From Planctomycetota bacterium (GTDB lineage Bacteria; Planctomycetota; PLA2; JAEUHO01), in NCBI GenBank assembly GCA_965222115.1, contig CBDCTJ010000007.1, forward strand, positions 2,656,001 to 2,720,000: a stretch of DNA of 64,000 nucleotides, given 5' to 3'. This document shows, one piece after another, positions 13,846 to 31,598 of this stretch. The position numbers and the translations under genes are program-made. Every line of letters starts with the position of its first letter. Position 1 is the stretch's first letter. Below the pieces are notes generated by a model. The model worked only from the letters and a program-made list of their open reading frames with translations, was not told where the DNA came from and ran no database searches.

Positions 13846-13858
13846 CCCTCGATGCCTA

Positions 13859-15835: not shown

Positions 15836-16210
15836 TCATGGAACGTTGAATCGCCGCTGGAGGACGAACAACATCGCGGCGGTTCGCTCCAGCGTGTTCA
15901 TGACTCGCGAAACTTTGAGTTCACTCGAGAGACGGAGTAGGAGCGCGTGATGTAGAGCCGCGATGGCTTCGGTGCATTCGGCGTGTGCAATGTCGTAGGC
16001 CCTGCGCTTCTCGGCTGCCCGCCGTTTCGATAGGCCTTCGGCGACGTTTAGGGCAACGCTGGTGCTTGCGCGCCTGAGTTGATCGGCAAGTTTTGCGTTG
16101 CCTCGTGGCCACTCGGCGCAGATGGCGACGCACTCGACTGCCGCGGCCTGCGAAGCACGGTAGACGTCGAAGCGTTTGAGGTACTCGAGCGTTGAAGACG
16201 CGCTTGTCAT
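15836..16210 (-). CDS. Four-helix-bundle protein, subfamily B copy 1
   Basis: 124 aa; RFDVY...LADQLRRASTSVALNVAEG...YDIAHAECTE; GGAG SD 7 nt upstream. Confidence 0.9.
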   Translation of the reverse strand: MTSASSTLEYLKRFDVYRASQAAAVECVAICAEWPRGNAKLADQLRRASTSVALNVAEGLSKRRAAEKRRAYDIAHAECTEAIAALHHALLLRLSSELKVSRVMNTLERTAAMLFVLQRRFNVP

Positions 16211-16366
16211 GATGGAACTCCAGTTGAAGGGAACGCAAGCCGTTTGCTCGCGTGTGCCCTTCGCAAAAGAGCCGAAGGCGAAGGAGGGCACACGCGAGCG
16301 GGTCGTACAAACAGAGCCCGCGTGACAGCGACAACTCGTTCCCAAACTGGAGTTCCATCACAAGCG
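16201..16366 (-). promoter_or_regulatory. Long leader hairpin (type B) sequestering the SD and start codon
   Basis: 16201-16225 pairs with 16345-16366 with a 3-nt bulge at the start codon; inner stems GGGAACG/CGTTCCC and GCTCGCGTGTGCCCT/AGGGCACACGCGAGC. Confidence 0.82.
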
Positions 16367-16417
16367 GCGCCTGCGCGTACCGAACGCGCTATGGCAACCG
16401 GCGGTGCTGTCCAAGGC

Positions 16418-16657
16418 CCAGTCACCCTTCACCCGTTACCCGTTACCCGTAAACCGAATCCCAGACTCAAGGGTGAGCGTCGGATGGACGATTCGCGCCG
16501 TCTTTACGTGGACGTGGACGTGGACGTGGACGTGGACGTGGACGTGGACGTGGACGTGGACGTGGACGTGGACGTGGACGTGGACGTGGACGTGGACGTG
16601 GACGTGGACGTGGACGTGGACGTGGACGTGGACGTGGACGTGGACGTGGACGTGGAA
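16418..16657 (+). repeat. Module R copy 4 (5' half) with (GTGGAC)24 at 16508-16651
   Basis: Heptamer ladder, CTCAAGGGTGAGCGTCGG, GATTCGCGCC, perfect 144-bp array. Confidence 0.95.
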
Positions 16658-16673
16658 TCAGATTGGGTGCATC

Positions 16674-17474
16674 TTAGTCGTCGTCTTTCTTGGGTACGTC
16701 TTTCTCAATCCACGACGTAATCATGTACCGCACTTCGACCCATGAAAGCGTGATTGTGTACTCGCGCGTTAGATGCTCATAGGTTACGAGGTACTTTGCT
16801 TGTAGGGAGTCGTTTTCACCGGGCCCAAACGATGTGCGCATGAGATTCTTGAACGCGCCTTGTTTTCCATCGACGAGATCGATCTTGGTTGGCAGTGACT
16901 CACGCTCAATCATATCGCCCGATACGAACTTCGAGATGGTTTGAGGATTGCCTTGCGCGACCTGCTCAACGGCGCCGCGCATGGCGTCCTGTTCGAGCAG
17001 TTTCCGCTGTTCATCGCGGGCAGTGATTACGTGCTCAGCCTGTGCGGCGCGAGGGGTTAACGTGTAACGTGCGATTAGCCAGCGGCCGCCTGTGGCTGGA
17101 TTTCGCCTAAGATGAAACGTGGAATCAAGGATGACGTGTTCGCAACTCAGCGTAGCAAGTACCGTCTTTCGCGCCTTGCCTCCTGTTTCCGACACCTCCT
17201 CGATTCGAATGTCGTTTACCGCTCTCACGTTTCCGAATTGGGCTTGATACTGTTTCCGCTGTTCGCCGAATGCATGGGGGTGCCAATACACAAGAAGGGG
17301 CTTAGCGACATGTGGAAGTGTTTCGATGGAGTCATGCACCGCGTTGGACAACAGCGCCTTTGCGAATTCGGTAACGATGACCTCATGGGCGTCCTTCGTG
17401 GTTAGCGAGCTGATGGCGGCGAATAGCACACACGCCAACAACGTAAGCCCAAGCGCCTTGAATACGGGACCCAC
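16674..17474 (-). CDS. Hypothetical exported or membrane-anchored protein
   Basis: 266-aa ORF with an N-terminal hydrophobic helix; directly downstream of the dehydrogenase gene. Confidence 0.7.
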   Translation of the reverse strand: MGPVFKALGLTLLACVLFAAISSLTTKDAHEVIVTEFAKALLSNAVHDSIETLPHVAKPLLVYWHPHAFGEQRKQYQAQFGNVRAVNDIRIEEVSETGGKARKTVLATLSCEHVILDSTFHLRRNPATGGRWLIARYTLTPRAAQAEHVITARDEQRKLLEQDAMRGAVEQVAQGNPQTISKFVSGDMIERESLPTKIDLVDGKQGAFKNLMRTSFGPGENDSLQAKYLVTYEHLTREYTITLSWVEVRYMITSWIEKDVPKKDDD

Positions 17475-17485
17475 GGCGCGGCCTC

Positions 17486-18517
17486 CTACGAAGATGCCTT
17501 CGGCTGCTTCTTCACTTCTTCAACGATCGCGCGCGTGATGTCATCGGTGGTGCCATTCCCGCCTAGGTCAGGCGTCAATGCTTCCTTGCGATGGCTCGTT
17601 ACGGCGGCGACACCACGGCGAATGCGATGGTACGCATCTACATCACCCAAGTGATGACACATCATGGCAGCACTGAGAATCATTGCGATTGGATTGGCGA
17701 CACCTTTGCCCGCAATGTCTGGGGCGGTGCCGTGGATCGCCTCAAACACGGCGCACTCTGCCCCGTAGTTTCCGCCCGGAGCCAAACCGAGGCCGCCAAT
17801 CAGGCCGGCCGCCAGGTCGCTCACAATGTCCCCGTATAGATTTTCAAGAAGAAGAACGTCGTAACGGCCGGGATTGGTCACTAGGTGCATGCACAACGCG
17901 TCAACGAGGACATCGGTAAACTCGACGGTGCCCCTAAACGGTTCCGATGATTCTTCTGCACAGCGCAAGAACAGGCCATCCGCCTTCTTCATGATGTTTG
18001 CCTTGTGAACGGCAGTGACCTTCTTACGCTCCCAGCGCTTGGCGTAGGAAAACGCGAACTCGGCGATGCGACGACTGGCGCGATCTGTAATAACCTTTAG
18101 TGAGGTGACGACGCCCGGTGCAACCTCGTTCTCCATGCCGGCATAAAGGTCTTCCGTGTTCTCACGAACGATGACCAAATCGACGGGACCGTGCGACGTC
18201 TCGAGACCGGGAACCGTTTTCACCGGACGAACATTGGCGAACAGTTCGAGCGCTTTCCGCAGTCGAACGTTGGCAGATACGTGGCCACCGCCACTTGGCG
18301 TGGTCGTGGGTCCCTTGAGCGCTACCCCAATGTCCCGAACGAGATCCACCGTCTTTGTAGGCATGGCGTCGCCGTGCTTCTCAAGGGCGCACAGGCCGAG
18401 ATCAGCCTCGATCCAGTCAAAGTTCATCTCAGCAGCATCAAGCACGCGACGCGCTGATGCAGCCACCTCCGGGCCGATACCGTCGCCGGGTAGATAGACA
18501 ACACGTGTACCGCTCAT
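17486..18517 (-). CDS. Isocitrate/isopropylmalate dehydrogenase family protein (NAD-dependent IDH-like)
   Basis: PGDGIGPEV, IVRENTEDLY, VHKANIMK, NLYGDIVSDL and FEAIHGTAPDIAGKG motifs. Confidence 0.92.
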   Translation of the reverse strand: MSGTRVVYLPGDGIGPEVAASARRVLDAAEMNFDWIEADLGLCALEKHGDAMPTKTVDLVRDIGVALKGPTTTPSGGGHVSANVRLRKALELFANVRPVKTVPGLETSHGPVDLVIVRENTEDLYAGMENEVAPGVVTSLKVITDRASRRIAEFAFSYAKRWERKKVTAVHKANIMKKADGLFLRCAEESSEPFRGTVEFTDVLVDALCMHLVTNPGRYDVLLLENLYGDIVSDLAAGLIGGLGLAPGGNYGAECAVFEAIHGTAPDIAGKGVANPIAMILSAAMMCHHLGDVDAYHRIRRGVAAVTSHRKEALTPDLGGNGTTDDITRAIVEEVKKQPKASS

Positions 18518-18655
18518 GCGGGGTATCCTCCGAACACACCGCGTGGGGCGCGCGAAAAAAGGCTTTGTGAACGACGCAAAGTATCGAGCATTTCGCGGCG
18601 CGTAGCGAATTGTCCAGGCGCCCAATGCGCCCATTTCTGATGGAGACCGCCGATC

Positions 18656-20524
18656 ATGGAGCGCCGGCCCGGAGCTTTCCGACGCGTGCTGTCGGCGTTG
18701 CTGGGACAGGTCGTTCCCGCGTCACTCGGTCTCGTCGCTGGCTCGTTGGCACTAACCTTCGTCCCACTCAACAACCACGGCATTGGCGCCTGCATTGCGA
18801 CGTTTCTGCTGGTTTGGTTCTCCGCTGCCTGGGGCCTTGCACGCGTCCGCGAAAACAAACAATGGCGGCGTCTCTACCGTCTCGCCGTTTTCGGCCACGT
18901 ACTGTTTTGGTCCTACGTAGGCATCGCTGGATCTTCACTTCGTGCGCCCGGCGTGCCCCAAGTGCGACCCGGGACGCACGATGGCGCTGACATGGGTCAG
19001 ATTCGCGCGGGCGTCGGTGAAGCGGCGTTTGTCATTCCCAGGGATGTGACGCTTGGTGGTTGGGGTATGCGACCCCGTCGCTATCGTGTTCCCGCCTTTG
19101 GAGGTATAGGGATTCTGGGGCGCCTAAGTCAAGACTTCATGGCCGGGACGGGTGGCGACGGCATGCCGCGCAAGCCGCTCTTCTTTTCGGCCGCGAAAGA
19201 GGATGCGCCCCAGACGTTGGAACGCGTTGGCGCGCGCGCCATTTCGATTTCGTGTGGAGACGGCGTGCCAATGACGTGGGTGCGTCTAGATTTGGTCACG
19301 GTGTCGCCGGGACTCGTTGCAGACATTCTCACACGCGTCAAGAAGTCTCACCCGCGTGTGACGCCTGATCGTCTTGTGGTGGCCGCATCACATACGCACA
19401 GTTGTATGGCCGGGTATAGCGAGCAACGCCTCTCCGCGCTTGCGGGTACGGACCATCTTCGTTCAGACGTTCGAAAGGCAGTCGCCGACGCGGCTCTTCA
19501 GGCCATTTCTATCGCCTGGTCAACCCGCTCGGCTGCTCAGCTAGCACCGTTTATGACGCATGATCGTTTGGCAGATGGACGTAGCGCGCTTGCCCGCAAT
19601 CGGCGTAAGAAGAATGACACCGACATTGACGATCGCGTCTTTGGGATACGTGTCGACTCGCAGGCTAGGGAGACGATTGCGATTCTGCTGAACTACGCCG
19701 TTCATCCAACGGTCCTAAAACGACATACATGTTCCCTTCACCGAGACTTGGTGGGGTCCGTAGAGGAGGCGGTTAGTAAGACGATTCCCAGTCGACCGAT
19801 GACACTCTTCTTGAATGGCGCGCAGGGCGATATTGGACCTGCACGCATCGAGGGGTATTCGGATGAGTTTCGTGCCGACGCGCTTGCCGAACGATTTGCC
19901 CGCGTCCTAAAGGACACGGTCACTTCCGCGGCGCCATACACCCATGGACGTATGCACACCGCGTTTGCAACGTGCGATCCAGGGTCCCCCTTTGCGATTG
20001 TTGCTGGTGAAGACCGCGCGGGTTGGGCGGAGCGATTTCGGTCGGGATACGTCGAGGGATCCACGAGTCAGTCGATCTGTGACGTGCTTTCGTATCCTGG
20101 CAACGCGCTTCTTTGGAGTATTGGGCTATCTGAAGCGCGCGTTGCATTCGATTTTGGTGGAGGCGGTGCAACGATGGTCTCACTGGATCCATCGATGGAA
20201 CAAACCGAGCTGCAGGTCGGCGCGTGGATACTTGAGCTGGGTGATTCGACCAATGTGAGGTTTCGTACAGTAGGTGTGTGGCAGCCCGGCGAAGCAACAC
20301 AGGCGCTGGGCAAGTCATGGCGCGCCATGGCCGCGTCACGTGGCTACGACCATTGCATGATTGCCGGACTGGCTGGGGGTGCGTGTGCCTACTTGACCAC
20401 GCCAGAAGAGTATGACGCCGGGGGCTACGAGGCACTTGCCACCCTCTATGGCCCCCGCGGCGGCGAGTTGATCGGTGCGGCGTTTGAGGGTGCGTTGGAT
20501 GCGTGTGATCCGAAGGGTGAATAG
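18656..20524 (+). CDS. Neutral/alkaline ceramidase-like hydrolase with N-terminal TM helices
   Basis: ASHTHS, NYAVHPT, FLNGAQGD and YLTTPEEYDAGGYE motifs; three N-terminal hydrophobic segments. Confidence 0.8.
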   Translation: MERRPGAFRRVLSALLGQVVPASLGLVAGSLALTFVPLNNHGIGACIATFLLVWFSAAWGLARVRENKQWRRLYRLAVFGHVLFWSYVGIAGSSLRAPGVPQVRPGTHDGADMGQIRAGVGEAAFVIPRDVTLGGWGMRPRRYRVPAFGGIGILGRLSQDFMAGTGGDGMPRKPLFFSAAKEDAPQTLERVGARAISISCGDGVPMTWVRLDLVTVSPGLVADILTRVKKSHPRVTPDRLVVAASHTHSCMAGYSEQRLSALAGTDHLRSDVRKAVADAALQAISIAWSTRSAAQLAPFMTHDRLADGRSALARNRRKKNDTDIDDRVFGIRVDSQARETIAILLNYAVHPTVLKRHTCSLHRDLVGSVEEAVSKTIPSRPMTLFLNGAQGDIGPARIEGYSDEFRADALAERFARVLKDTVTSAAPYTHGRMHTAFATCDPGSPFAIVAGEDRAGWAERFRSGYVEGSTSQSICDVLSYPGNALLWSIGLSEARVAFDFGGGGATMVSLDPSMEQTELQVGAWILELGDSTNVRFRTVGVWQPGEATQALGKSWRAMAASRGYDHCMIAGLAGGACAYLTTPEEYDAGGYEALATLYGPRGGELIGAAFEGALDACDPKGE

Positions 20525-20593
20525 GTGGCGGGAAGGAAGTAGATCCTGCGAAACAGGCCGGATGGAGTCTGAAGGATTCGTGCGTATTTCCTT

Positions 20594-20764
20594 ACCGTTA
20601 CCCGAAACCCGAAACCCGGGCTCAAGTGTGAGCGCTCAATGATCGATTCACGCCGGGTCGTCGAGAGTGAATGGCTTTGCCATTTGCACGAAGACCCTGA
20701 GTAAGCACCAGCGGATCTCTGATCCGCGCAGTGCGCATCAAAGGGTGCGCATCGAAGGGTGGAC
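20594..20764 (+). repeat. Module R copy 5 (full; no internal GTGGAC)
   Basis: CCCGAAA ladder, CTCAAGTGTGAGC, ATGGC-TTT-GCCAT hairpin, GCGGATC-TCT-GATCCGC, duplicated GTGCGCATC.AAGGG tail. Confidence 0.9.
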
Positions 20765-20807
20765 CTCAAGTAGCGTAATAGTCGTATGCGTTCGGTACCG
20801 ATGGACC

Positions 20808-20965
20808 ACCGAACTGTTTGCTGTGTGACGTGAACGCGCACTGGGCAACACCCTTTGAGAAGTGCTACGTGCATGCCCCATTCGCCATGAGGGCGAGGGC
20901 ACGCACTCGCATTCCCGCGGGTGTTTCCTCGTGGAGTTTCTCGTATGTCACACAGCAAACAGTTC
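20808..20965 (+). promoter_or_regulatory. Long leader hairpin (type A), second copy
   Basis: 20811-20829 is the perfect reverse complement of 20947-20965; same nested stems as 12879-13041. Confidence 0.82.
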
Positions 20966-21331
20966 TCGATTACTTCCACGGCAGGTCGGCTTGAACGTTT
21001 CGACGTGTATCGAATCGCACGCCGTGCCGCGGCCAGCATTCACCAGCTTTGTGGATCCCTGCCGCGAGGCAACGCCGAGCTTGCAAGCCAAGCTCGACGA
21101 GCCTCTACAGCCGTCGTCCTCAACATCGCCGAGGGCATCGGGCGCGCTGGCGCAGGCGCCAAGCACCGTTCGTTCTCCATCGCTCGCGGCGAGTGCGTCG
21201 AGGCCACCGCGGCACTCGACCTCATGCACGCGATGGGAATCCTTACAGGCGCCCACGCCGCGCCAACGCTTCGCGACCTTGACCGCGTTCGCGCAATGTT
21301 GAACGCGCTCATCCGGCGCTGGAGGGAATGA
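20945..21331 (+). CDS. Four-helix-bundle protein, subfamily A copy 2
   Basis: 128 aa; 8 substitutions relative to 13016-13402 by eye. Confidence 0.9.
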   Translation: MSHSKQFSITSTAGRLERFDVYRIARRAAASIHQLCGSLPRGNAELASQARRASTAVVLNIAEGIGRAGAGAKHRSFSIARGECVEATAALDLMHAMGILTGAHAAPTLRDLDRVRAMLNALIRRWRE

Positions 21332-21339
21332 GGGGGTGT

Positions 21340-21572
21340 CCCGTTACCCGAGACCCGTTACCCGGACTCAAGTGTGAGCCTCTGATGATCGATTCGCGCC
21401 GTTCGTGGACGTGGACGTGGACGTGGACGTGGACGTGGACGTGGACGTGGACGTGGACGTGGACGTGGACGTGGACGTGGACGTGGACGTGGACGTGGAC
21501 GTGGACGTGGACGAAACCCTGAGTAAGCACCAACGGATCTCTGATCCGCGCGGTGCGCACCGAACGGTGGAC
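21340..21572 (+). repeat. Module R copy 6 with (GTGGAC)18 at 21405-21512
   Basis: Heptamer ladder, CTCAAGTGTGAGC, perfect 108-bp array, CCCTGAGTAAGCACC...GTGGAC tail; first 3' hairpin deleted. Confidence 0.95.
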
Positions 21573-21578
21573 ATGATG

Positions 21579-22283
21579 CTAGTTCAGTTCCGGTCGTGTC
21601 CCTGGAGGCACAGGAGGGTCACTTGCGTAGGCTTGTTTTTCTAGATACGAAACGAGCTGGGTGAAGCGTTTCAAGATGTCGGGCTCGGCCAATAACGCAT
21701 AGCGTTCATTAGGTTCAAGATCGCTAGCCGTGGCGACGGCATCCGCGTAGCGGCCCGGGCTCGCGTCCACGCCGCGGGTTTGATTGGCCATGCGGCGCAT
21801 TTCCCAAATGATGTTTTGACGGCCCGGGAGCATGTCGAGTGCGCGCTTCATAGCCTTTGCGATGTCGCCCGATTGATCGGGGCGCATGGTGTCACCAATG
21901 ACTTCGACGCGCGCGCGACGATACGGGTCGTGTGGAATCTCATCGACAATGCGGGCGCGGAAAAGTCCGTAGAGCAAAATGTCGCACTTACCGGTGGGCT
22001 GTTCGTGGTGGCGAAATATTTGCCCCACCGTAATGACGTCGTGAATCGGTGGGTTGCCGAGGTAGGAATCGTCAGCGTCGTCCCAGCCGGGCTTGAGCAG
22101 CGCGGTGGCGATGAGGCCGTCGTCTTCGAGGGCGTCGGTCACCATCTTCACGTAACGCCGTTCATAGACTTTGAGGGGCGCAAGGCCATCAGGAAAGAGC
22201 ACCAGATTAGGTAGGGGAAACAGGCGTACGTCCCCGGAGAAGTTCTCCAGCACCATCTTCAAATTCAGGGGCGGCTTCTGCAT
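21579..22283 (-). CDS. Lon peptidase N-terminal (substrate-binding) domain protein
   Basis: LFPLPNLVLFP...PLKVYERRYVKMV motif; no ATPase or protease domain. Confidence 0.88.
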   Translation of the reverse strand: MQKPPLNLKMVLENFSGDVRLFPLPNLVLFPDGLAPLKVYERRYVKMVTDALEDDGLIATALLKPGWDDADDSYLGNPPIHDVITVGQIFRHHEQPTGKCDILLYGLFRARIVDEIPHDPYRRARVEVIGDTMRPDQSGDIAKAMKRALDMLPGRQNIIWEMRRMANQTRGVDASPGRYADAVATASDLEPNERYALLAEPDILKRFTQLVSYLEKQAYASDPPVPPGTRPELN

Positions 22284-22322
22284 CGCCGTACTATACCCGC
22301 TGGTTCACCCCGGAGTCGGTCC

Positions 22323-23147
22323 ATGCAACATGACGCGCTCGAGTCGCTGCTGCGCGATGTTCGCGAGGGCTCGGTCGATGTGGCCACCGCCATGGGGCGC
22401 ATTTCGGGCGTTACAAACGCTGCACCAGCCTTTCAAGCAGAAGCAGTGATTGCGCGCTTGGACGCGAATCGTGCCGATCGCTGTGGATTCCCGGAAGTGA
22501 TCTATGGTGAATCCAAAGAGCCGAGCGACTTGGCTCGACTTGTACGGGCGGCCCTGGACGCGTCCGGTTCGTTGCTGGTTACGCGTGCGGATAGGCGACG
22601 ATTTGAGGCGGTCTTGAACGCCGTACCGGTCGCGATGTATCACGAACGCGCTCGCTGCATCACCGTCATGCCTGAGGCTCCGACGGAATCTCGAACGGGC
22701 GTATTGATCGCCTGTGCCGGTACAAGTGATGTGCCGGTGGCTGAAGAGGCGCGGGTCACGGCCTCAATGATGGGGGAGGCACCCGAAACGCGCTACGACG
22801 TGGGCGTGGCAGGACTTCAACGAATCCTGGCAGAGCTCGACACGCTACGAATGTCGCGCGTCATTGTGGTCGTAGCGGGTATGGACGGGGCGCTTCCGAG
22901 TGTGGTCGCGGGACTGACCGCGGCGCCCGTTATCGCAGTACCCACGAGTGTTGGGTACGGCGCGGCATGGCAGGGCGTGGCGCCCCTGCTCACCATGCTA
23001 AATGCCTGCGCTCCCGGCGTGTCCGTGGTCAATATCGACAATGGCTTCGGTGCAGGCTACCTGGCCGCAACCATCAACGCCATGGCTTCCGCGCATCCAG
23101 AACATGCGAGCCACCAATCTCTGAAGCGTGCGGTGCCCTCCGAGTAG
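22323..23147 (+). CDS. larB: Nickel pincer cofactor biosynthesis protein LarB
   Basis: GFPEVIYGESK, AGTSDVPVAEEA, VAGMDGALPSVV, PTSVGYG and VNIDNGFGA motifs. Confidence 0.92.
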   Translation: MQHDALESLLRDVREGSVDVATAMGRISGVTNAAPAFQAEAVIARLDANRADRCGFPEVIYGESKEPSDLARLVRAALDASGSLLVTRADRRRFEAVLNAVPVAMYHERARCITVMPEAPTESRTGVLIACAGTSDVPVAEEARVTASMMGEAPETRYDVGVAGLQRILAELDTLRMSRVIVVVAGMDGALPSVVAGLTAAPVIAVPTSVGYGAAWQGVAPLLTMLNACAPGVSVVNIDNGFGAGYLAATINAMASAHPEHASHQSLKRAVPSE

Positions 23148-23157
23148 CCTCTCGGGC

Positions 23158-24339
23158 ATGAATGCACCCTCACCGGCCACCCTCGTTCTTGCCGACGGGT
23201 CGGTCTTTCACGGACGACACTTCGGCGCCGACAAAGCGCGCGCGGGCGAAGTCGTGTTCAACACGGCCATGACCGGATACCAAGAGATCGCGACCGATCC
23301 GTCGTACGCGGGGCAAATTGTCTGCATGACGTACCCCCACATCGGCAATACCGGCGTGAATGACGAAGACCTCGAAGCGGCCCACCCGTGGATCGAGGCC
23401 TTCGTCGTGCGCGAACATTCGCCGATTGCCAGCAACTTTCGTTCGAACAACACCTTGGATGGATGGCTCAAGGCACACGACATCATTGGCATAGAAGGTG
23501 TTGATACGCGGCGCCTCACGCGTCATGTACGAACTATGGGAGCCATTGGCGGTGTCGTCGGCGGACCGGGAAGCAAGACCGACGCACTTTTGGAACAAGC
23601 GAAAGCGTTGCCTTCAATGGCCGGCATGGATCTTGTGACCACGGTGACATGCAAAGAGCCGTATTCCTTTGGTGAAGCGTGGCCCGAGCCATGGTTCCCT
23701 TCGCCAGAACACATCGGACAAGGACGCGACGGTGTTGGGCCTTCGAAGGCCGATTCGCTCTCGCCCAAGTCGGTCGTTGTCATGGACTTTGGTGTGAAAC
23801 GCAACATTCTTCGTTCACTTCGTACCTTTGGCTTAGAGCCTTACGTGGTTCCTGCCTCGACCTCAGCCGCCGACATTTTGGCGCGTAATCCCGACGGCGT
23901 GTTTTTTAGCAATGGTCCGGGAGATCCCGCCGCCGTTACCTATGCCATTGACACCATCAAGGAACTGCTGGGCAAGGTTCCCACATTCGGGATTTGCCTC
24001 GGGCACCAACTGATGGCGTTGGCGGCGGGGGCAAAGACCCGCAAGCTCAAGTTCGGTCACCGCGGCGCCAACCATCCCATTCGCGAACACGCCACGGGTC
24101 GCATAGAAATCACGAGCCAAAATCACGGCTTTGTGGTGGAAGAAGAGAGCCTGGGCGGCACCCCATTCAAGCCTACGCACACCAACCTCAACGACAACAC
24201 CAATGCCGGCATGGCCAGCGAGGCCCTACGCGCATTCGCCGTCCAGTACCACCCCGAGGCCGCCCCCGGTCCACGCGACGCCGGGCATCTGTTTTATCGC
24301 TTTCGCCAGCTGATTGAAGGTAGTGCAACGTTGGTGTGA
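23158..24339 (+). CDS. carA: Carbamoyl-phosphate synthase small subunit
   Basis: GEVVFNTAMTGYQE, SNGPGDP, GICLGHQL and VQYHPEA motifs. Confidence 0.97.
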   Translation: MNAPSPATLVLADGSVFHGRHFGADKARAGEVVFNTAMTGYQEIATDPSYAGQIVCMTYPHIGNTGVNDEDLEAAHPWIEAFVVREHSPIASNFRSNNTLDGWLKAHDIIGIEGVDTRRLTRHVRTMGAIGGVVGGPGSKTDALLEQAKALPSMAGMDLVTTVTCKEPYSFGEAWPEPWFPSPEHIGQGRDGVGPSKADSLSPKSVVVMDFGVKRNILRSLRTFGLEPYVVPASTSAADILARNPDGVFFSNGPGDPAAVTYAIDTIKELLGKVPTFGICLGHQLMALAAGAKTRKLKFGHRGANHPIREHATGRIEITSQNHGFVVEEESLGGTPFKPTHTNLNDNTNAGMASEALRAFAVQYHPEAAPGPRDAGHLFYRFRQLIEGSATLV

Positions 24340-24363
24340 CCCCAGTGAGCTTCCTCGCGGTTG

Positions 24364-24466
24364 CCCGTTACCCGTGATGCGCGGCCCGACACCCGTTACC
24401 CGATACCCGGACTCAAACGTGAGCGTACGATGGTCGATCTGTGCAGCGCGCATCGAACGGTGGACG
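24364..24466 (+). repeat. Module R copy 7 (internally collapsed)
   Basis: Heptamer ladder, GGACTCAAACGTGAGCGTAC, joined to GCGCATCGAACGGTGGACG. Confidence 0.85.
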
Positions 24467-24467
24467 G

Positions 24468-24842
24468 TCAGGGACCGCCGAATTTGTGTTGAAGCACGAA
24501 CAACATGGCGGCGGCGCGTTCTAGGGTGTTCATCGCCTGCGACGTTGCGCGCTCGCTTGCGATTCCAAGCAGCTGGGCGTGATGCAGCGCAGCGATCGCT
24601 TCGGTGCACTCGGCGTGGGCGATGTCGTATGCCTTGCGCTTCTCGGCGGGGCGGCGCTTCGCCAGCCCCTCTGCGACGTTGAGTGCAACGCTGGTACTAG
24701 CGCGCCGGAGTTGATCGGCGAGTTTTGCGTGGCCTCGAGGCCATGTTGCGCAGAGCGCGACGCACTCGACTGCTGCTGCCTGCGAAGCACGGTAGACATC
24801 GAAGCGTTTGAGGTAATGGAGCGTGGAAGACGCGCTTGTCAT
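24468..24842 (-). CDS. Four-helix-bundle protein, subfamily B copy 2
   Basis: 124 aa; LADQLRRASTSVALNVAEG; antisense to the flanking carA and purA. Confidence 0.9.
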   Translation of the reverse strand: MTSASSTLHYLKRFDVYRASQAAAVECVALCATWPRGHAKLADQLRRASTSVALNVAEGLAKRRPAEKRKAYDIAHAECTEAIAALHHAQLLGIASERATSQAMNTLERAAAMLFVLQHKFGGP

Positions 24843-25000
24843 GATGGAACTCCAGCGTGAAGGGAACGCAAGCCGTTTGCTCGCGTGTGCCCTTCACAAA
24901 AGAGCCGAAGGCGAAGGAGGGCACACGCGAGCGGGTCGTACAAAAAGTCCCCTCGTGACAGCGACAACTCGTTCTCAAGCTGGAGTTCCATCACAAGCGC
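24832..25000 (-). promoter_or_regulatory. Long leader hairpin (type B), second copy
   Basis: GCGCTTGT-cat-GATGGAACTCCAGC pairs with GCTGGAGTTCCATC-ACAAGCGC. Confidence 0.82.
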
Positions 25001-25041
25001 AGCCCGCGCGTAACGGTCGCGCATGCCTTGCCCGCGGCCCG

Positions 25042-25220
25042 CCCGGAATCCGTCACCCGTATCCCGTCATCCGGACTCAAATGTGGACATCCGATGATCG
25101 ATTCACGCCGGTTCGTGGACGTGGACGTGGAGAGCAGATGGGCGAAGCCCATTTGCGCGAAGACCCTGAGTAAGCACCAGCGGATCTCTGATCCGCGCAG
25201 TGCGCATCGAAGGGTGGACG
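25042..25220 (+). repeat. Module R copy 8 (full; (GTGGAC)2)
   Basis: Heptamers, GGACTCAAATGTG, GATGATCGATTCACGCC, GCAGATGGGC-GAA-GCCCATTTGC, conserved tail. Confidence 0.92.
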
Positions 25221-25250
25221 CAAATTGGTGCCGGGCGCGAACGTGCGTGC

Positions 25251-25351
25251 CCCGCGACCCGTTCCCCCGTACCCCGAGCCCCGATTCCCGTCACCCATCA
25301 CTCGTTACCCGACACCCGGTCGCCAGTGTGAGCGTTCAATGAACGACTTGC
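25251..25351 (+). repeat. Module R copy 9 (5' fragment, degenerate)
   Basis: About nine degenerate CCCGNNN units, then CAGTGTGAGCGTTCAATGAACGA. Confidence 0.75.
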
Positions 25352-25454
25352 AGTGCAAATTGCCACCGGGAGCGAACTCCGCGAATTGCGCTCATTTTGA
25401 GTCGTTCCCCGTCATCTGCCCGGGTAGAATCCGCTTTTACACGGAGAATGCGCC

Positions 25455-26777
25455 ATGAGCGTAACCTGTGTCTTTGGTATGCACTGGGGCGACGAGGGTA
25501 AGGGGCGCATTGTAGACCTGCTCGCCGCGCAGTCCGATGTGGTTGTCCGTTTTCAGGGTGGCGCAAACGCGGGCCACACCGTCATTGTGGACGACCAAAA
25601 ATATGTGCTTCACCTCCTGCCCTCGGGCGTGATTCAACCCAGCACGATCAATGTGATCGGAAACGGCGTCGTGGTGGATCCCGAAGTCGTGCTGGCCGAA
25701 ATCGACGAGCTTGTGGGCCGTGGGATCAAGCTCGATGGGCGTCTATTCATCTCGGACCGCGCCCACGTTGTGCTGCCGCATCACAAGTTGCTTGACCGTG
25801 CGTTTGAGGCGTTGCGTGGCGATGGCGCGCTGGGCACGACCTTTCGCGGCATCGGACCTGCATATTCGGACAAAGCGAGCCGAGACGGCGTGCGGATCGT
25901 TGACTTGCTTGAGACCAAACGTTTTGCTCCGGCGCTCACCATGGCGAAGCGCTACGGCGATCCGATTCTTGAGAAGGTGGGCATGGACCCCATCGACGTG
26001 GACGCGTCGGCAAAACAACTGTCCGCGTGGGGGAAACGATTGCGCCCCTTTGTTCGCGACACGGTTTCGTTTCTTCTTGATCAGCAAGAGAAGGGCGTGC
26101 GCATCTTGCTCGAAGGTGCGCAAGGGTACGCACTCGACATCGATCACGGCACTTATCCGTTTGTTACGTCAAGTAGTACGTGCCCGGCGGGTGCGGCTGC
26201 AGGCACGGGGTTGCCGCCGCGCGCGATCGACGAAATGGTTGGTGTTGTTAAGGCCTATAGCACGCGCGTGGGCGCTGGACCATTTCCCACGGCAGCGGAA
26301 CCGTCGGTCGCGGAACATCTTGGCAAGCACGGCGCCGAATTTGGCGCTACGACCGGGCGACCACGGGGCTGCGGCTGGTTCGATGGCGTGATCGCGAAGC
26401 GTGCCATTGAAACGCAGGGCGTCGATTCTGTTTGCCTCATGAAGATGGACGTGCTCTCGGGACTCACCGAAATCAAGGTGTGCACGGCCTACACATACCA
26501 AGGAGAAACGCTTACTGCGCCGCCGGCTTGGATTGGTGACTGGGACGACCTGAAACCGGTCTATACCACCTATGACGGTTGGAACGAGGACATTTCTGGC
26601 GTTCGGCACTTCATCGACTTGCCGGTCGCGGCGCAACATTACGTACATGCGATTGAATCGTTCCTCAACACGCCCATATCCATTGTGAGCGTGGGGCCGG
26701 AACGCGATCAGTTTATTGACATGACGCGTCCGCATCAATCTGTAAAAAACGTGGGTTCCAAAGTACAGGCCGGATAG
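25455..26777 (+). CDS. purA: Adenylosuccinate synthase
   Basis: WGDEGKG, GGANAGHT, DIDHGTYPFVTSS and EFGATTGRPR motifs. Confidence 0.98.
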   Translation: MSVTCVFGMHWGDEGKGRIVDLLAAQSDVVVRFQGGANAGHTVIVDDQKYVLHLLPSGVIQPSTINVIGNGVVVDPEVVLAEIDELVGRGIKLDGRLFISDRAHVVLPHHKLLDRAFEALRGDGALGTTFRGIGPAYSDKASRDGVRIVDLLETKRFAPALTMAKRYGDPILEKVGMDPIDVDASAKQLSAWGKRLRPFVRDTVSFLLDQQEKGVRILLEGAQGYALDIDHGTYPFVTSSSTCPAGAAAGTGLPPRAIDEMVGVVKAYSTRVGAGPFPTAAEPSVAEHLGKHGAEFGATTGRPRGCGWFDGVIAKRAIETQGVDSVCLMKMDVLSGLTEIKVCTAYTYQGETLTAPPAWIGDWDDLKPVYTTYDGWNEDISGVRHFIDLPVAAQHYVHAIESFLNTPISIVSVGPERDQFIDMTRPHQSVKNVGSKVQAG

Positions 26778-26806
26778 CGGCCTGGCACGAAAGAGGCACG
26801 TCGCGC

Positions 26807-27715
26807 ATGACCAGCGATTCCACGTCTACGTCAAAGAGCAGTCGCGATGTGCGCGTGCGACTCGTCGTAGCACCCATCGTCTTGGCCGTCGTATTGGGCA
26901 CGATCTGGCTCGCTGAACACTTCGAGTCGCGCCTTCCACTTCATCTCTTGATCATGTTTTTTGCCATTGGTTCAGGCATTGAGTTTGTGCGCATGCTTGC
27001 GCCGTCAGGGACAAGCGAGCGCCTCAAGGGCGGAGCGTTGGCGTGGATCACGTGCGGACTGCTTGCGGGGGTGGGTTTGATCGAGCTTCTGCGGCCCACG
27101 TCAAGTTACGTCGCCGATGCGGGTCTGCGCATGGAACTGCGCGTACTCATCGTCATCGCATTCACCTGGTGCATCTTGGTGGGCAAGTACTTCTTGGATA
27201 CACGTCACAAATCCACGTCCGAAATTGGCCGCGTCTTTCTGCCCGTGCTCTACATCGGCCTACCGCTCTCGCTAGCATGTGAAATTTGTGCTGGCCCTCT
27301 TGCGGCGCGTCGGGTCATGTGGGTGGTCTTGGTCGCCAAAGCGTGTGACATCGGTGGCTGGGTATTTGGCAAGCTGTTTGGCAAGCACAAAATGGTGCCC
27401 ACCGTGTCGCCAGGAAAGTCGTGGGAAGGCACCACGGGGGGCATTGTCCTGAGCATCGCCGCGGCGGTATTCCTTCCCGACCTATTCGGATTGCCTGAGT
27501 CCGAGTGGTCCGTAGCGATGCGCGTGGGATTCGGATTCATGGTGGGGGCGGCCACCATCTTGGTGGGCGTCACGCAAAGCGGATGGAAACGCCGTGCAGG
27601 CGTCAAGGACTCAAGCGCCCTGATTCCGGAGATGGGCGGCATCCTCGACATGACCGATTCGCTGCTCTTTGCGGTTCCGGTGGCGTATCTGTGGTATCGA
27701 TTTGTGGTGGCGTAG
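26807..27715 (+). CDS. cdsA: Phosphatidate cytidylyltransferase
   Basis: SPGKSWEG and KRRAGVKDS..IPEMGGILD motifs; polytopic membrane protein. Confidence 0.9.
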   Translation: MTSDSTSTSKSSRDVRVRLVVAPIVLAVVLGTIWLAEHFESRLPLHLLIMFFAIGSGIEFVRMLAPSGTSERLKGGALAWITCGLLAGVGLIELLRPTSSYVADAGLRMELRVLIVIAFTWCILVGKYFLDTRHKSTSEIGRVFLPVLYIGLPLSLACEICAGPLAARRVMWVVLVAKACDIGGWVFGKLFGKHKMVPTVSPGKSWEGTTGGIVLSIAAAVFLPDLFGLPESEWSVAMRVGFGFMVGAATILVGVTQSGWKRRAGVKDSSALIPEMGGILDMTDSLLFAVPVAYLWYRFVVA

Positions 27716-27778
27716 TTGAACGCGTTAGAGTGGCCGGCCCTTTCGAAGACATATCATCAAAAGCACCACGAGTTCCAC

Positions 27779-28846
27779 ATGCCCCAAGTCCGCATCGCCA
27801 ACACCGGAGAAGCCGCGCAGCGCGTGTTGTTTGGTCCTATGGACAAACATCTGCGCCGGATTCGTGAGCATTTCGGCGTGCGCATAAGCGCTCGCAACGA
27901 AGTACTCACGCTTGAGGGCGACGATGTGGACGCGGTTGAAGATGTCGCGCGACGATTGAAGCGCGTGTTGGGTCGCATGAATGGGCGCACCGAGCCACCT
28001 GAGAACGAAGTCGAAGAGATTTTGCTTGGATCCGGAAAGCCATCGTCGAGTCGCAAGATTCGAACCTCAAACGGACCACGCACGGGCACAGGCCAAGCGC
28101 CTCACCGCATGTCGAAGACCACGGCGCGTGATCACGGCGGTTCGATTGCACCCAAACCAAAGACGCCGGGCCAAGAACGCTACATCGATGCCATCCGAGA
28201 GCACGACGTCGTGTTTGCCTTGGGGCCGGCGGGCACGGGCAAAACGTTTTTGGCAGTCGTAGAAGCCGTGCGTTGCCTACGAGACGGCACGGCCCGCAAG
28301 ATTATCCTCACGCGTCCCGCGGTGGAGGCAGGTGAGAAGCTAGGATTTTTGCCGGGTGATTTTCAAGCGAAGATCAATCCCTATTTACGACCGCTCTATG
28401 ATGCGCTGGGCGAGTTGCTAACGCACGCCGAAGTACAACGCTACTTCGAGGCCGACGTGATTGAAATTGTGCCGTTGGCCTATATGCGCGGTCGCACCTT
28501 GAAAGAGGCATTCATCATTCTTGACGAGGCGCAGAATACGACTCCCGCGCAGATGAAGATGTTTCTCACACGTATGGGCGAACGATCCAAAGTCGTCGTA
28601 AATGGCGACGCATCCCAGGTGGACTTGCCCGGTGGAACTACATCATCGGGGCTGAGTCAAAGCGTTCGCATTCTTGAGGATGTTCCCGGAATCGCCGTGG
28701 TTCGCTTCGCACCAACCGACATATTGCGTCATCCGTTGGTTCAACGCATTGTGGATGCCTATGACCGCGAAGACGATCGACGAGCAGCGAATGAGTCATC
28801 AAGCGACGCAGACGATGTGAGCGACGACGAATCGCAAGGCGCATGA
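27779..28846 (+). CDS. phoH: PhoH family ATPase
   Basis: [31 protein letters not shown] and DEAQN motifs. Confidence 0.95.
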
Positions 28847-29310
28847 GTGGCGGTTCCCCAACGGCTTCCGTATCGATTGTCGATTGCGTAGAGATTCCCG
28901 GAGGTAAGTCGGTTTTCGAGCGACGCATGCAAGCTGTGGCACACATGGCGGCTGCCTATGCCGGGTGTTCGTTGGAGCTCGTCTATGTGGTGCTTGGGGA
29001 CGACGAGATGCGCGCGCAGAACAAAGCTGCGCTCAACCATGACTATCCAACCGATGTGCTCTCCTTTGACATGGGTCACACACACGACATACGTCACGGC
29101 GAGATCCTTGTGTCGGCCGACACCGCCGTTCGTGAAGCAGCATCTCGCGCACACAGTGGGGCAGATGAGTTGTGCCTGTATGCAGTTCACGGCACACTCC
29201 ACTTCGTGGGGTACGACGATCACGATCCCGCCGATCGAAGACGAATGCGTGCTGCCGAGAGGCGATGGCTACGCCGATTGGGTTGCAATGCAATCTACGG
29301 ACGTCGGTAA
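28843..29310 (+). CDS. ybeY: rRNA maturation RNase YbeY
   Basis: PTDVLSF and [12 protein letters not shown] motifs; follows phoH. Confidence 0.92.
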
Positions 29311-29395
29311 TCGCCCCCGCCCTACTCACGCCCCCCGCGAATGATTGCCCTTTACGCCTCTCTCTCCGAGGATAGGGCGTCCTTCGGAGATCGTC

Positions 29396-30589
29396 ATGTC
29401 GAGTCAGCAGCACCTTGTCGAACGCGTCTTAGAAATGGGCGTGGCCACCCGTGAGCAGGTGGATGAGGCCCTTGAAATTTGCAGTCGGCTCAGTGAAATG
29501 GGCATGAAGTCGCGCTCCGTGATCGACGTTCTTTTCGAAAAGGAATACATCGACAAGGAAGTTTTCGATCGGCTCCAGCGCGAAGCCAAGCGTGTGGAGG
29601 GCAAAGAGCAAATTGCCGGCTATCGCCTCCTCGATCGTCTCGGTGAGGGCGCGATGGGTGCCGTCTATCGTGCAAAGCAGCTTTCGCTGGATAGAGAAGT
29701 GGCTGTCAAGGTTCTCGACCCCGAACTGGCGAGCAATGACGAGTACGTCAAGCGTTTCATGAGCGAGGCGCGCGCCGTGGCCCGACTCAATCACACAAAC
29801 ATTATCAGCGGCATCGATGTGGGCGACGCAGACGGCATCAAATATCTCGTTATGGAGTATGCCGACGGAATGACGGTGAGTTCCCTGCTTGAACGCGGCG
29901 GTGCGCTCGATGAAGAGCGCGCGTTGTGGGTTGTGCTCCAAATGGCTCGTGCCTTAGATCACGCGCATCGCAACAACTTGGTTCACCGCGACGTCAAACC
30001 CGACAACATCATCATCACGAAAGATGGCGTCGCGAAGCTGTGTGACTTGGGTCTTGCCCGATTGGAAAGCGCGGAGGGTGAGGCGCCCCAACGTATGGGC
30101 ACCCCCGCCTACATTTCGCCCGAGCAGGCTCGCGGCGATGTAACCGTGGACGAACGTACCGATCTCTATAGCTTGGGCGCCACGTGGTTTCACATGGTAA
30201 CCGGTCGCCCGCCCTACACCGGCAACGACGCAGGTGCTGTACTCGCCAAACACCTCACGGAACCCGTGCCCCACGTGCGAACAATCGATCCCACGATTAG
30301 CGAGATGAGCGATGAACTGGTCTTTGGTCTGCTCCAAAAGCGCCGCGGCGACCGAACCGAGTCCGCCAGCGTTTTGATTCCGCAGTTGGAATCCGCCATT
30401 CGCGAATTGCAGTTGGCTCGTGGTGCCAGCCCCTCCAGTGCGATGGGCGTAGCAGCGAAAGCAAAACCAGCCGCCGGTTCCATCAAGGTTCCTGTGCGTC
30501 CCGCAGCCCCGGAACCGCGCTCCGCGGATGTTCCCAGTCGTCCAAGTGCTCCGATCGCTCCAAGACCAAGGCGTCGGCGAAGGCGTTAG
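29396..30589 (+). CDS. Hanks-type Ser/Thr protein kinase
   Basis: LGEGAMGAVY, VAVK, HRDVKPDN, DLGLA and GTPAYISPEQ motifs; Pro/Arg-rich tail. Confidence 0.95.
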   Translation: MSSQQHLVERVLEMGVATREQVDEALEICSRLSEMGMKSRSVIDVLFEKEYIDKEVFDRLQREAKRVEGKEQIAGYRLLDRLGEGAMGAVYRAKQLSLDREVAVKVLDPELASNDEYVKRFMSEARAVARLNHTNIISGIDVGDADGIKYLVMEYADGMTVSSLLERGGALDEERALWVVLQMARALDHAHRNNLVHRDVKPDNIIITKDGVAKLCDLGLARLESAEGEAPQRMGTPAYISPEQARGDVTVDERTDLYSLGATWFHMVTGRPPYTGNDAGAVLAKHLTEPVPHVRTIDPTISEMSDELVFGLLQKRRGDRTESASVLIPQLESAIRELQLARGASPSSAMGVAAKAKPAAGSIKVPVRPAAPEPRSADVPSRPSAPIAPRPRRRRRR

Positions 30590-30645
30590 GGTTCGCCTCC
30601 TAGCGGACAGTTTTCTGCACGTGGTTCCCGACTCTGTTTTCAGCG

Positions 30646-30759
30646 CCCGTATGCCGTTACCCGTTACCCGAGACCCGATACCCGATACCCGATACCCGAT
30701 ACCCGGTCTCAAGTGTGAGCATCCGATGATCGATTCGAGGCACGTTTAAGACGTGGACG
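30646..30759 (+). repeat. Module R copy 10 (5' half; 1 GTGGAC)
   Basis: Eight heptamers including (CCCGATA)4, CTCAAGTGTGAGCATCCGATGATCGATTCG, ends in GTGGACG. Confidence 0.9.
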
Positions 30760-30760
30760 A

Positions 30761-31135
30761 TCACGGTTCGTCGAATCGGCGCTGAAGTACGAACAACATG
30801 GCGGCGGATCGCTCCAAGCTGTTCATGACGAGTGAGATTGCGGCTTCGCTGGCGAGACCAAGCAATAGCGCGTGGTGTAGAGCGGCAATGGCCTCGGTGC
30901 ATTCGGCGTGTGCGATGTCGTAGGCCCTGCGCTTTTCGGCTGGCCGCCGTTTCGATAGGCCTTCAGCGACGTTTAGCGCAACGCTGGTACTTGCGCGCCT
31001 GAGTTGATCGGCGAGCTTTGCGTGGCCGCGAGGCCATGCGGCGCAGATTGCGACGCACTCGATCGCCGCGGCTTGCGAAGTACGGTAGACATCGAAGCGT
31101 TTGAGGTACTCGAGCGTAGAAGAGGCGCTTGTCAT
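30761..31135 (-). CDS. Four-helix-bundle protein, subfamily B copy 3
   Basis: 124 aa; same signature as the other B copies. Confidence 0.9.
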   Translation of the reverse strand: MTSASSTLEYLKRFDVYRTSQAAAIECVAICAAWPRGHAKLADQLRRASTSVALNVAEGLSKRRPAEKRRAYDIAHAECTEAIAALHHALLLGLASEAAISLVMNSLERSAAMLFVLQRRFDEP

Positions 31136-31291
31136 GATGGAACTCCAGATGAAGGGAACGCAAGCAGTTTGCTCGCGTGTGCCCTTCGCAAAAAAGCCGA
31201 AGGCGAAGGAGGGCACACGCGAGCGGGTCGTACAAAAAGAACCCGCGTGAAAACGACAACTCGTTCCCAAGCTGGAGTTCCATCACAAGCG
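31126..31291 (-). promoter_or_regulatory. Long leader hairpin (type B), third copy
   Basis: CGCTTGT-cat-GATGGAACTCCAG pairs with CTGGAGTTCCATC-ACAAGCG; inner stem conserved. Confidence 0.82.
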
Positions 31292-31342: not shown

Positions 31343-31598
31343 CCCGTCACCCGTTACCCGTCACCCGTTACCCGTCACCCGTTCCCCGTGACCCGTACTC
31401 AAGGGCGGGCATCCGATGAACGATTTGCGCCGTCTTAACGTGGACGTGGACGTGGACGTGGACGTGGACGTGGACGTGGACGTGGACGTGGACGTGGACG
31501 TGGACGTGGACGTGGACGTGGACGTGGACGTGGACGTGGACGTGGACGTGGACGTGGACGTGGACGTGGACGTGGACGTGGACGTGGACGTGGACGTG
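31343..31598 (+). repeat. Module R copy 11 (5' half) with (GTGGAC)26 at 31440-31595
   Basis: Seven CCCGT(C/T)A-type heptamers, CTCAAGGGCGGGCATCCGATGAACGATTTGCGCC, perfect 156-bp array. Confidence 0.95.

Follow-up and report, generated by a model that had tools for sequence, protein, structure and literature searches.

A selected hairpin leader on the translation start of multi-copy PF05635 genes in a Planctomycetota genome, possibly one half of a sense/antisense pair

What does a giant hairpin do at the start codon of a small gene that a bacterial genome carries in many copies? The window (the whole 64,000-nt stretch of a Planctomycetota contig analysed here) contains three copies of a palindrome, type B, each of which forms the 5' leader of a minus-strand PF05635 gene of 124 aa (23S-rRNA-IVS protein, an Avd-like four-helix bundle). 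The available portions of PMC11270868 and PMC10053308 describe the PF05635 domain as functionally uncharacterised and as encoded in rRNA intervening sequences. PF05635 proteins are present in 85 of the 151 Planctomycetota genomes that we sampled, often in multiple copies. We know of no role for these proteins outside diversity-generating retroelements. As we show below, the type B hairpin is a genuine, selected element on a translation start, and it probably controls expression of its PF05635 gene. The reading we favour, to which we give a probability of roughly 45%, is that type B, a conserved palindrome of ~165 nt, serves as the 5' leader of an Avd-like (PF05635) gene that is stand-alone and multi-copy, and that it governs access to the translation start.

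A first-pass annotation made from the letters alone had placed three copies of the hairpin in the window, and all three are where it put them (Table 1). The arms, too, are as described there: in the mRNA sense (minus strand) the 5' arm CGCUUGUGAUGGAACUCCAG faces CUGGAGUUCCAUC-AUG-ACAAGCG, and in each copy the GGAG is paired within a 13-bp helix next to three unpaired bases, AUG or UGA depending on the register. In the full-length mRNA the AUG forms a 3-nt bulge between the GGAG-containing 13-bp helix and a 7-bp helix with codons 2–4; between the arms lie ~125 nt of leader, and the arms reach as far as codon 4. For the 13-nt outer-arm word we counted six occurrences (three copies, two arms each) as compared to 1.28 expected, a number reached by none of 100 shuffles, and the 14-nt inner-arm word occurs exactly six times. 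The folding check that the annotation had called for supports the hairpin: positions 16190–16380 of the minus strand fold at -100.9 kcal/mol as compared to -66.3 ± 4.4 kcal/mol for 200 shuffled sequences (z -7.96; 0/200 as stable), a stability that should also rule out an RNA thermometer.

Table 1. Positions of the PF05635 units and associated repeats in the window
Feature	Positions	Strand	Details
Type B leader hairpin, copy 1	16201..16366	-	Outer-stem 3' arm (mRNA) 16201-16223, ATG 16210-16208; 5' arm 16347-16366; inner stem arms 16246-16259 and 16286-16299
Type B leader hairpin, copy 2	24832..25000	-	ATG 24842-24840; outer stem closed by one additional G-C pair, G24832:C25000
Type B leader hairpin, copy 3	31126..31291	-	ATG 31135-31133
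Type B PF05635 gene, copy 1	15836..16210	-	124 aa + stop; Pfam 23S_rRNA_IVP 62.9 bits (cut-off 33.8); TIGR02436 four helix bundle protein
Type B PF05635 gene, copy 2	24468..24842	-	Pfam 64.7 bits
Type B PF05635 gene, copy 3	30761..31135	-	Pfam 62.8 bits
Type A leader hairpin	20810..20967	+	5' arm 20810-29, paired to 20947-66 (ATG from its G onward, then codons 2-7)
Type A PF05635 gene	20945..21331	+	128 aa + stop
Second type A PF05635 gene	13016-13402	+	
Repeat module 5' of leader 1 (mRNA sense)	16421..16656	+	7-nt repeats CCCGTNA on + (ACGGGTN in type B mRNA sense), then a ~40-nt conserved core, then (GTGGAC)x25 at 16506-16656
Like repeat module beside leader 3	31343..31598	+	Heptamers 31343-31396; hexamer array 31438-31598

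The gene behind the hairpin is real and under purifying selection (dN 0.076, dS 0.684, dN/dS 0.11, with a leader distance of 0.115). Its product scores 62.8–69 bits against the PF05635 profile (curated cut-off 33.8) and 61.9 and 70.3 bits against TIGR02436 (cut-off 24); the closest solved structure is 2GSC, itself an uncharacterised PF05635 protein. The bulged ATG, which the hairpin model takes as the start, is the only plausible one: it is retained in 10/10 type B copies of the genome, and the open frame upstream of it varies between copies through 1-nt leader indels, yielding total lengths of 129–195 aa. These indels exclude a translated leader; the opposite strand likewise offers no conserved small ORF, the frames of copies 1 and 2 being unlike.

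Genome-wide we found 10 full type B copies, each leader lying directly 5' of an intact type B gene, plus one truncated remnant, and eight copies of a second type, A, of the same build. There are no solo hairpins among the 18 (10/10 type B and 8/8 type A leaders abut their gene, and the sole fragment is the truncated unit); the gene-free copies by which a miniature inverted-repeat or REP-type element is recognised are therefore missing. The stretch from -175 to +30 folds with z below -4 in 8/10 type B and 8/8 type A copies. All 18 genes lie within 2.27–2.85 Mb of the contig, around the replication terminus (GC-skew maximum at ~2.76 Mb), 16–17 of them share one orientation relative to replication, and their neighbours are housekeeping (metabolic) protein genes.

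The type B stems are under strong purifying selection. Across the 10 copies 97.4% of 577 cells are paired, and 62 of 178 leader columns vary as compared to 94 of 125 third codon positions; nucleotide diversity is 0.04–0.09 in the stems, 0.18–0.29 in the leader interior and 0.17–0.50 at third positions, and the stems change about six-fold more slowly than synonymous sites. The one covarying pair that had been noted, T16224:A16346 versus C24856:G24979 (columns 30:155), is C-G in eight copies, U-A in one and a C-U mismatch in copy 3. The inner stem of 14 bp, reported as invariant, is so in the three window copies and varies across the genome's 10, with one compensatory change from C-G to U-A and, in three copies, a U-to-C change that leaves a C-A mismatch in the mRNA sense. 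Covariation in type B is thin: two-sided changes affect 3 of 58 pairs, a level reached by 2/500 shuffles, most pairs are invariant, and 47 of the 58 are either invariant or changed on one side only. With so few compensatory changes, constraint on the sequence itself may account for part of the conservation; type A stems do carry genuine compensatory changes. A covariance model built from the 10 type B leaders scores its own copies at 200–220 bits and their reverse strands at 22–31 bits.

Is the hairpin a default-off translational lock, as the first-pass annotation had proposed? That claim survives in part. A selected hairpin does sit on the start of a real gene, and in type B the GGAG is predicted to be buried: the mean unpaired probability of positions -14 to +3 is 0.10–0.24 in type B mRNA as compared to 0.39 in 32 control genes, and the anti-SD is present at the 16S 3' end. 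What does not extend beyond type B is the occlusion, since the same stretch is no more occluded than the controls in type A leaders (0.37–0.46) or, on average, in 23 hairpin leaders of relatives (0.39; Mann-Whitney p 0.73); as predicted from these folds, start occlusion is not family-wide. A further point against a simple lock is that derived stem changes favour pairing of the antisense strand (see below). Full-length type B transcripts would be poorly translatable and good substrates for double-strand RNases, and expression would then require that the hairpin be processed (RNase III-type, as with the rRNA intervening sequences), that transcription start internally or that a partner RNA intervene.

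Related genera carry hairpins of unrelated sequence at the same site of their PF05635 genes: about 17 of 23 such genes, from seven related genomes, have at their start a long hairpin, as judged by eye from the folds, and several of these place GGAG(G) within the 3' arm, with an internal loop or bulge at the ATG. For the region from -175 to +30, z fell below -4 in 7/23 relatives of the same order, 2/27 distant members of the phylum and 0/22 controls. In the G013 family the hairpin stops ~25–30 nt before an exposed GGAG. The PF05635 genes of distant Planctomycetota lack a start hairpin and have only upstream 7-nt repeats, 20–60 nt from the start; in the units of the window such repeats and the ATG flank the hairpin, an arrangement suggesting that it lies within the 5' UTR and that the leader is likely transcribed whole. 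A DNA search with the type B leader matched 0/40 other related genomes, a pattern search for related loci with the B/A alignment gave 103 matches of which none was confirmed, and a search with a narrower alignment gave 30 loci. The type B covariance model scores the hairpins of the G026 family at only 15–27 bits (E 1.6e-4 to 0.1) and has weaker matches of 11–21 bits in F1-family loci, on both strands and in part off the leader; these scores are too weak to set homology of the G026 and F1 hairpins to type B apart from generic hairpin likeness, and we do not claim it.

Which strand is selected? When minority pair states were counted on a strand-neutral, Watson-Crick-only consensus fold, 22 were A-C in the sense strand (that is, G-U in the antisense) as compared to six sense G-U (binomial p 0.0037), although these counts are small and come from paralogues of common ancestry. 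The derived states divide into 13 A-C versus five G-U in type B and nine versus one in type A, and the core helices alone give 13 versus two (p 0.007). The consensus folds at -69.5 kcal/mol in the sense and -81.8 in the antisense, and the antisense MFE is the lower one in 17/18 copies. As type A lies on the plus and type B on the minus strand, the asymmetry tracks gene orientation and not the replication strand. We think it most likely that control also involves a transcript of the complementary strand, since the derived substitutions keep that strand paired; such a transcript would fold into a hairpin opposite the leader, in cis-antisense to it. Type B is a structured leader and possibly a sense/antisense pair. 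Should the antisense signal prove genuine, each genome would carry ~18 copies of a new sense/antisense control module.

The same data admit another reading, in which the opposite-strand RNA is the only selected molecule: a non-coding RNA, structured and transcribed outward from the gene's 5' end, with the mRNA hairpin as its mirror image and the overlap with the gene start being either its mode of action on the mRNA or incidental. We regard this as somewhat unlikely. Beyond the minority states, it draws on the substitution skew in paired columns (G>A plus T>C 26 versus C>T plus A>G 11), which is reversed at third codon positions (28 versus 48; Fisher p 0.0012), and on the related F1 family, where nine leaders have 59 A-C versus 17 G-U states and alifold energies of -21.7 (sense) and -44.0 (antisense). 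However, unpaired leader columns are skewed likewise (19 versus 12; paired versus unpaired p 0.45), so that mutational bias instead of selection on pairing may be at work; static whole-hairpin counts show no antisense preference in type B (A-C 35 versus G-U 42) or type A (16 versus 23), and the F2 family is balanced (18 versus 21; alifold -51.7 and -49.3). Nor did consensus promoter and terminator scans around copies 1 and 2 reveal a promoter-like site or anything else relevant on either strand, and if the mRNA side is irrelevant, nothing accounts for the 3' arm carrying GGAG and ATG at a constant position.

That constant start-codon placement also speaks against a palindrome that acts as DNA, be it as a protein-binding operator or as a cruciform or single-strand hairpin site for the spread or recombination of PF05635 units with their flanking 7-nt and 6-nt arrays. 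Conservation of the arms as sequence rather than by covariation would fit such a site, as would multi-copy units set between housekeeping genes with direct repeat-module copies on their flanks, and so would the gathering of 18/18 genes around the GC-skew maximum in a largely common orientation. Yet the favoured strand is the lagging-strand template in type B and the leading-strand template in type A, so a replication-fork hairpin cannot account for both; the units hold no transposase, integrase or relaxase, the genome's only reverse transcriptases are of the group II intron type (one type scanned), and a between-copy dS of 0.68 indicates old rather than recent spread. We hold DNA-level action to be distinctly improbable. 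That the hairpin is a functionless decaying relic (a miniature inverted-repeat insertion or duplication scar), or else an N-terminal extension, is scarcely credible: some copies do have a leader free of stops in the gene's frame, e.g. with a 169-aa ORF from a TTG, but the slow stems, the lack of solo hairpins and the varying frame lengths all contradict this, and homogenisation of the stems by gene conversion is opposed by the divergent 40-nt interior between them.

The preferred reading, a leader that governs start-site access, has partial precedents. In RNase III-activated leaders and hok-type locked mRNAs the ribosome site lies in a long helix, and processing or an (antisense) partner RNA is needed. 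Type B is alike in the predicted burial of its GGAG, its very stable fold and the hint of a functional antisense strand; it differs in being far larger (~-100 kcal/mol), multi-copy and tied to tandem-repeat arrays, and the 124-aa gene product, helical and soluble-looking, is unlike the small membrane toxin of hok-type systems. Closer by protein family are the rRNA intervening sequences, in which PF05635 was first found and which are excised by RNase III. Those with a PF05635 ORF share with type B a long RNase III-type double-stranded stem, but they lie inside a 23S or 16S rRNA gene and their terminal inverted repeats enclose the ORF, whereas type B has metabolic neighbours, the window has no rRNA match, and the arms enclose the leader and not the ORF. 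The hairpin leader nonetheless ties stand-alone PF05635 genes structurally to these hairpin-bearing sequences, and the giant start-codon hairpin, together with the phylum-wide upstream 7-nt repeats, offers first concrete handles on PF05635 control and binding partners. At gathering scores Rfam has no match in the window and none in seven loci; in the latter, microRNA precursor models reach a sub-threshold 26–40 bits (gathering 84–128), a generic long-hairpin likeness. A search of the literature outside subscription journals yielded nothing on stand-alone PF05635 genes that dealt with their leaders or repeats.

More speculatively, and in our estimate unlikely, the hairpin could be part of an undescribed class of chromosomal elements in Planctomycetota, with look-alikes in Myxococcota: stand-alone Avd-like genes accompanied by a giant palindromic leader, 7-nt repeats with G-tracts and perfect 6-nt arrays. 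Both strands of the leader would be transcribed, with mutual control between a locked mRNA and an antisense RNA that is itself structured, and the units would be replication-polarised and clustered at the terminus. If so, the Avd-like protein would be a nucleic-acid-binding protein that partners the hairpin and repeats of its own unit, and the rRNA intervening sequences would represent one particular form of that element.

Finally, the Avd protein of diversity-generating retroelements works with structured RNA. As far as the available portion of PMC10053308 goes, its four-helix-bundle family is homologous to the type B protein. Such retroelements have an adjacent reverse transcriptase; none adjoins any type A or B unit. 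The genome has seven RVT_1 matches, multi-copy and none within a unit, and the one type that we scanned with NCBIfam and Rfam (L083, standing for three 445-aa copies of 137.1 bits) is a group II intron reverse transcriptase, with 343 bits to TIGR04416 plus a group II intron RNA; we reject a link of the units to reverse transcriptases. An intron RNA domain is also found in L004, beside copy 2633939.

The type B hairpin, a ~165-nt leader preceding a 124-aa PF05635 gene, is confirmed as the first-pass annotation observed it. Sequence reading of all three stretches located both arms, the paired GGAG, the 3-nt bulge (which can be read as either AUG or UGA), the inner 14-bp stem (in each of the three window copies) and the single pair that covaries between copies. 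The fold check that the annotation called for gave −100.9 kcal/mol in mRNA sense (z −7.96; 0/200 shuffles fold as well), and the arm words occur far above chance expectation. As judged by this reading and by alignment of 1 kb around each stretch, one minus-strand unit is repeated three times. The bulged ATG is the true start, as the annotation had assumed: all type B copies keep it, with a conserved N-terminus MTSASSTLEYLKRFDVYR.

Type B units and repeats (window positions)
Feature	Position	Strand	Remarks
Type B ORF, copy 1	15836-16210	minus	124 codons, directly after ~165-nt leader
Type B ORF, copy 2	24468-24842	minus	124 codons, directly after ~165-nt leader
Type B ORF, copy 3	30761-31135	minus	124 codons, directly after ~165-nt leader
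7-nt repeats	16421-16456, 31343-31396, 30654-30705, 13470-13510		
(GTGGAC)n arrays	13553-13754, 16506-16656, 21404-21513, 31438-31598		
Conserved tail of repeat module, ~90 nt	13757-13850, 20660-20760, 21514-21575, 25130-25225	plus in every case	7-bp GCGGATC/GATCCGC hairpin, no T-run
138-nt tandem repeat	12171-12496		2.4 copies, 77% matches; in or beside minus-strand ORF without Pfam match

Type B proteins match NCBIfam TIGR02436 (‘four helix bundle protein’), and the closest solved structure by sequence, 2GSC, is an uncharacterised family member. PMC10053308 relates the PF05635 family to Avd of diversity-generating retroelements, and PMC11270868 describes it as functionally uncharacterised and present in rRNA intervening sequences. 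Both settings are ruled out here: unlike rRNA intervening sequences with a PF05635 ORF, the element lies outside rRNA and its arms do not enclose the ORF, and as to a diversity-generating retroelement, no unit contains a reverse transcriptase, the reverse transcriptases are multi-copy, and a scan of one type identified it as a group II intron enzyme. The genome has seven RVT_1 (reverse transcriptase) hits, including C7:2631845 (locus L004, 111-187) and C7:881482 (locus L083); the copy chosen for scanning, L083, proved to be a group II intron RT/maturase accompanied by intron RNA domains, an intron RNA domain is also found in L004, and one RVT_1 copy lies ~0.8 kb from the B unit at 2633939. No Rfam family matched the element.

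The type B hairpin is under selection. Among the 10 paralogues dS is 0.684 and dN 0.076 (ratio 0.11), with a leader distance of 0.115; 94/125 third codon positions vary vs 62/178 leader columns. Nucleotide diversity is 0.04–0.09 in the stems and up to 0.18–0.29 in a 40-nt interior stretch, a pattern that speaks against gene conversion having simply homogenised the copies. Pairing is retained in 97.4% of 577 cells; since only 3/58 pairs changed on both sides (a number reached by 2/500 shuffles), the evidence is one of conservation, not covariation.

Most single changes in the stems leave an A-C mismatch when read in mRNA sense and a G-U pair on the complementary strand. Minority pair states, counted on a Watson-Crick-only consensus fold that is neutral between strands, comprise 13 A-C and 5 G-U in sense for type B, and 9 and 1 for type A, the second PF05635 gene type (pooled 22 vs 6, p 0.0037; core outer and inner helices 13 vs 2, p 0.007). 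The type B consensus folds at −69.5 kcal/mol in sense and −81.8 kcal/mol in antisense, and antisense is the better-folding strand in 17 of 18 copies, sense in one. At third codon positions of these genes the transition bias runs the other way (28 vs 48; compared with paired leader columns, Fisher p 0.0012), and because types A and B occupy opposite genome strands, the asymmetry follows the gene and not replication. Of two leader families from related genomes, F1 agrees (59 A-C vs 17 G-U in 9 non-independent leaders; alifold −21.7 sense, −44.0 antisense) and F2 is balanced (18 vs 21 by static whole-hairpin counts). Such static counts give no antisense preference in this genome either (A-C vs G-U 35/42 for type B, 16/23 for type A). 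Unpaired leader columns are similarly skewed (19 vs 12; p 0.45 vs paired columns), so that a mutational cause, e.g. transcription of the other strand, is indistinguishable from selection on pairing. In our reading, the signal that the complementary strand may be transcribed or structurally constrained is real but modest.

The 16S rRNA 3′ end carries an anti-SD, and 15/32 control starts, themselves crudely assigned, have an SD-like word. Mean unpaired probability over −14..+3 is 0.10–0.24 for type B, 0.37–0.46 for type A, and on average 0.39 both for 23 relatives and for the 32 control genes of the window (minimum 0.19). Provided that both arms are transcribed, strong occlusion of the type B start is therefore predicted. 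This lends partial support to the default-off translational lock proposed in the first-pass annotation, but what the hairpin-bearing families have in common is not occlusion; they share a very long helix, and the start codon falls within its 3′ arm or next to it.

A DNA search for the type B leader in 40 related genomes returned no match. PF05635 paralogues occur in 7/39 other genomes of the order, and folding −220..+45 of 23 of these genes (3 more lie too close to contig ends) gave, as judged by eye, a long near-perfect hairpin at the start in ~17, with quite different sequences; a second set of 23 relatives’ leaders likewise has start hairpins. Several families carry GGAG(G) within the 3′ arm. 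The G026 family follows the plan of type B, its ATG sitting in an internal loop between an AGGAG-bearing helix and one with codons 2–5; G013-family hairpins stop ~25–30 nt before an unpaired GGAG. PF05635 is present in 85/151 sampled phylum genomes, but at this distance the hairpin is missing: for 27 diverse phylum loci the upstream fold z is −0.74 vs −0.72 in controls. Fold z below −4 (−175..+30 in every set) is reached by 8/10 type B and 8/8 type A leaders, 7/23 order relatives, 2/27 phylum members and 0/22 controls, which makes the hairpin a feature peculiar to this order.

A profile search of the source genome (7 contigs, 4.55 Mb) found exactly 18 PF05635 genes: 10 of type B, each intact and adjoining one of the 10 full leaders (87–100% identity), and 8 of type A (128 aa, ~43% identical), each having a separate palindromic leader in which the G of ATG plus codons 2–7 make up the 3′ arm. 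All lie at 2.27–2.85 Mb of contig C7 and therefore cluster round the likely terminus (cumulative GC skew minimum 0.58 Mb, maximum ~2.76 Mb), 16–17 of 18 in one orientation relative to replication, amid ordinary housekeeping genes (NADH dehydrogenase, isocitrate dehydrogenase, carbamoyl-phosphate synthase, adenylosuccinate synthetase, PhoH, YbeY). Unit orientation flips at the skew maximum, and B and A genes often form divergent pairs ~600 bp apart. A repeat module flanks every unit and combines 7-nt repeats and a conserved core with perfect (GTGGAC)n arrays that reach 33 units; 25 of the genome’s 27 arrays of at least 3 units lie beside PF05635 units (C7, 2.27–2.94 Mb). One truncated remnant (C7:2443858-2443954; locus L008, ~1300-1460) has the module and leader 5′ half, without 3′ arm or gene.

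We tentatively favour, with a probability of about 0.45, a structured leader that would gate the start of the PF05635 gene until processing or a partner opened it, with probable involvement of an antisense transcript. A consensus scan round copies 1 and 2 found no promoter-like site. If it acts at all, the type B leader would resemble RNase III-dependent or antisense-controlled locked leaders, from which it is set apart by size, copy number, gene product and the attached repeat arrays. Literature searches outside subscription journals turned up no account of the leaders that precede stand-alone PF05635 genes.

An RNA made from the antisense strand only is a weaker candidate: the minority pair states and fold energies lean towards that strand, the static counts do not, and the scan found no promoter or terminator on it. 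Rather unlikely is a palindrome acting as DNA and connected with the repeat module and with how the unit spread; the module does flank every unit. The frame is open upstream of the type B ATG for 129–195 aa, varying by copy because the leaders differ by 1-nt indels, and a relic or coding extension is very improbable for a hairpin so well retained.

Period-7 tandem repeats (at least 15/21 self-matches at lag 7, at most 120 nt from the start) precede PF05635 genes at 17/27 loci (L085-L113) from 27 Planctomycetota genomes vs 17/557 control windows (p 6e-17); period 8 occurs at 4 more of these loci and period 9 at 1. Many are G-tracts (GGG every 7 nt), which by their sequence could form G-quadruplexes, and the repeats are similar to the STRR heptamers of cyanobacteria. 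Arrays of GTGGAC/GTTGAC and GGCGAC likewise lie upstream at a PF05635 locus from Myxococcaceae (L077). Finally, contig C6 (48,116 bp) has a GC of 0.397 vs 0.55–0.59 in the other six contigs and may be foreign DNA or mis-binned.
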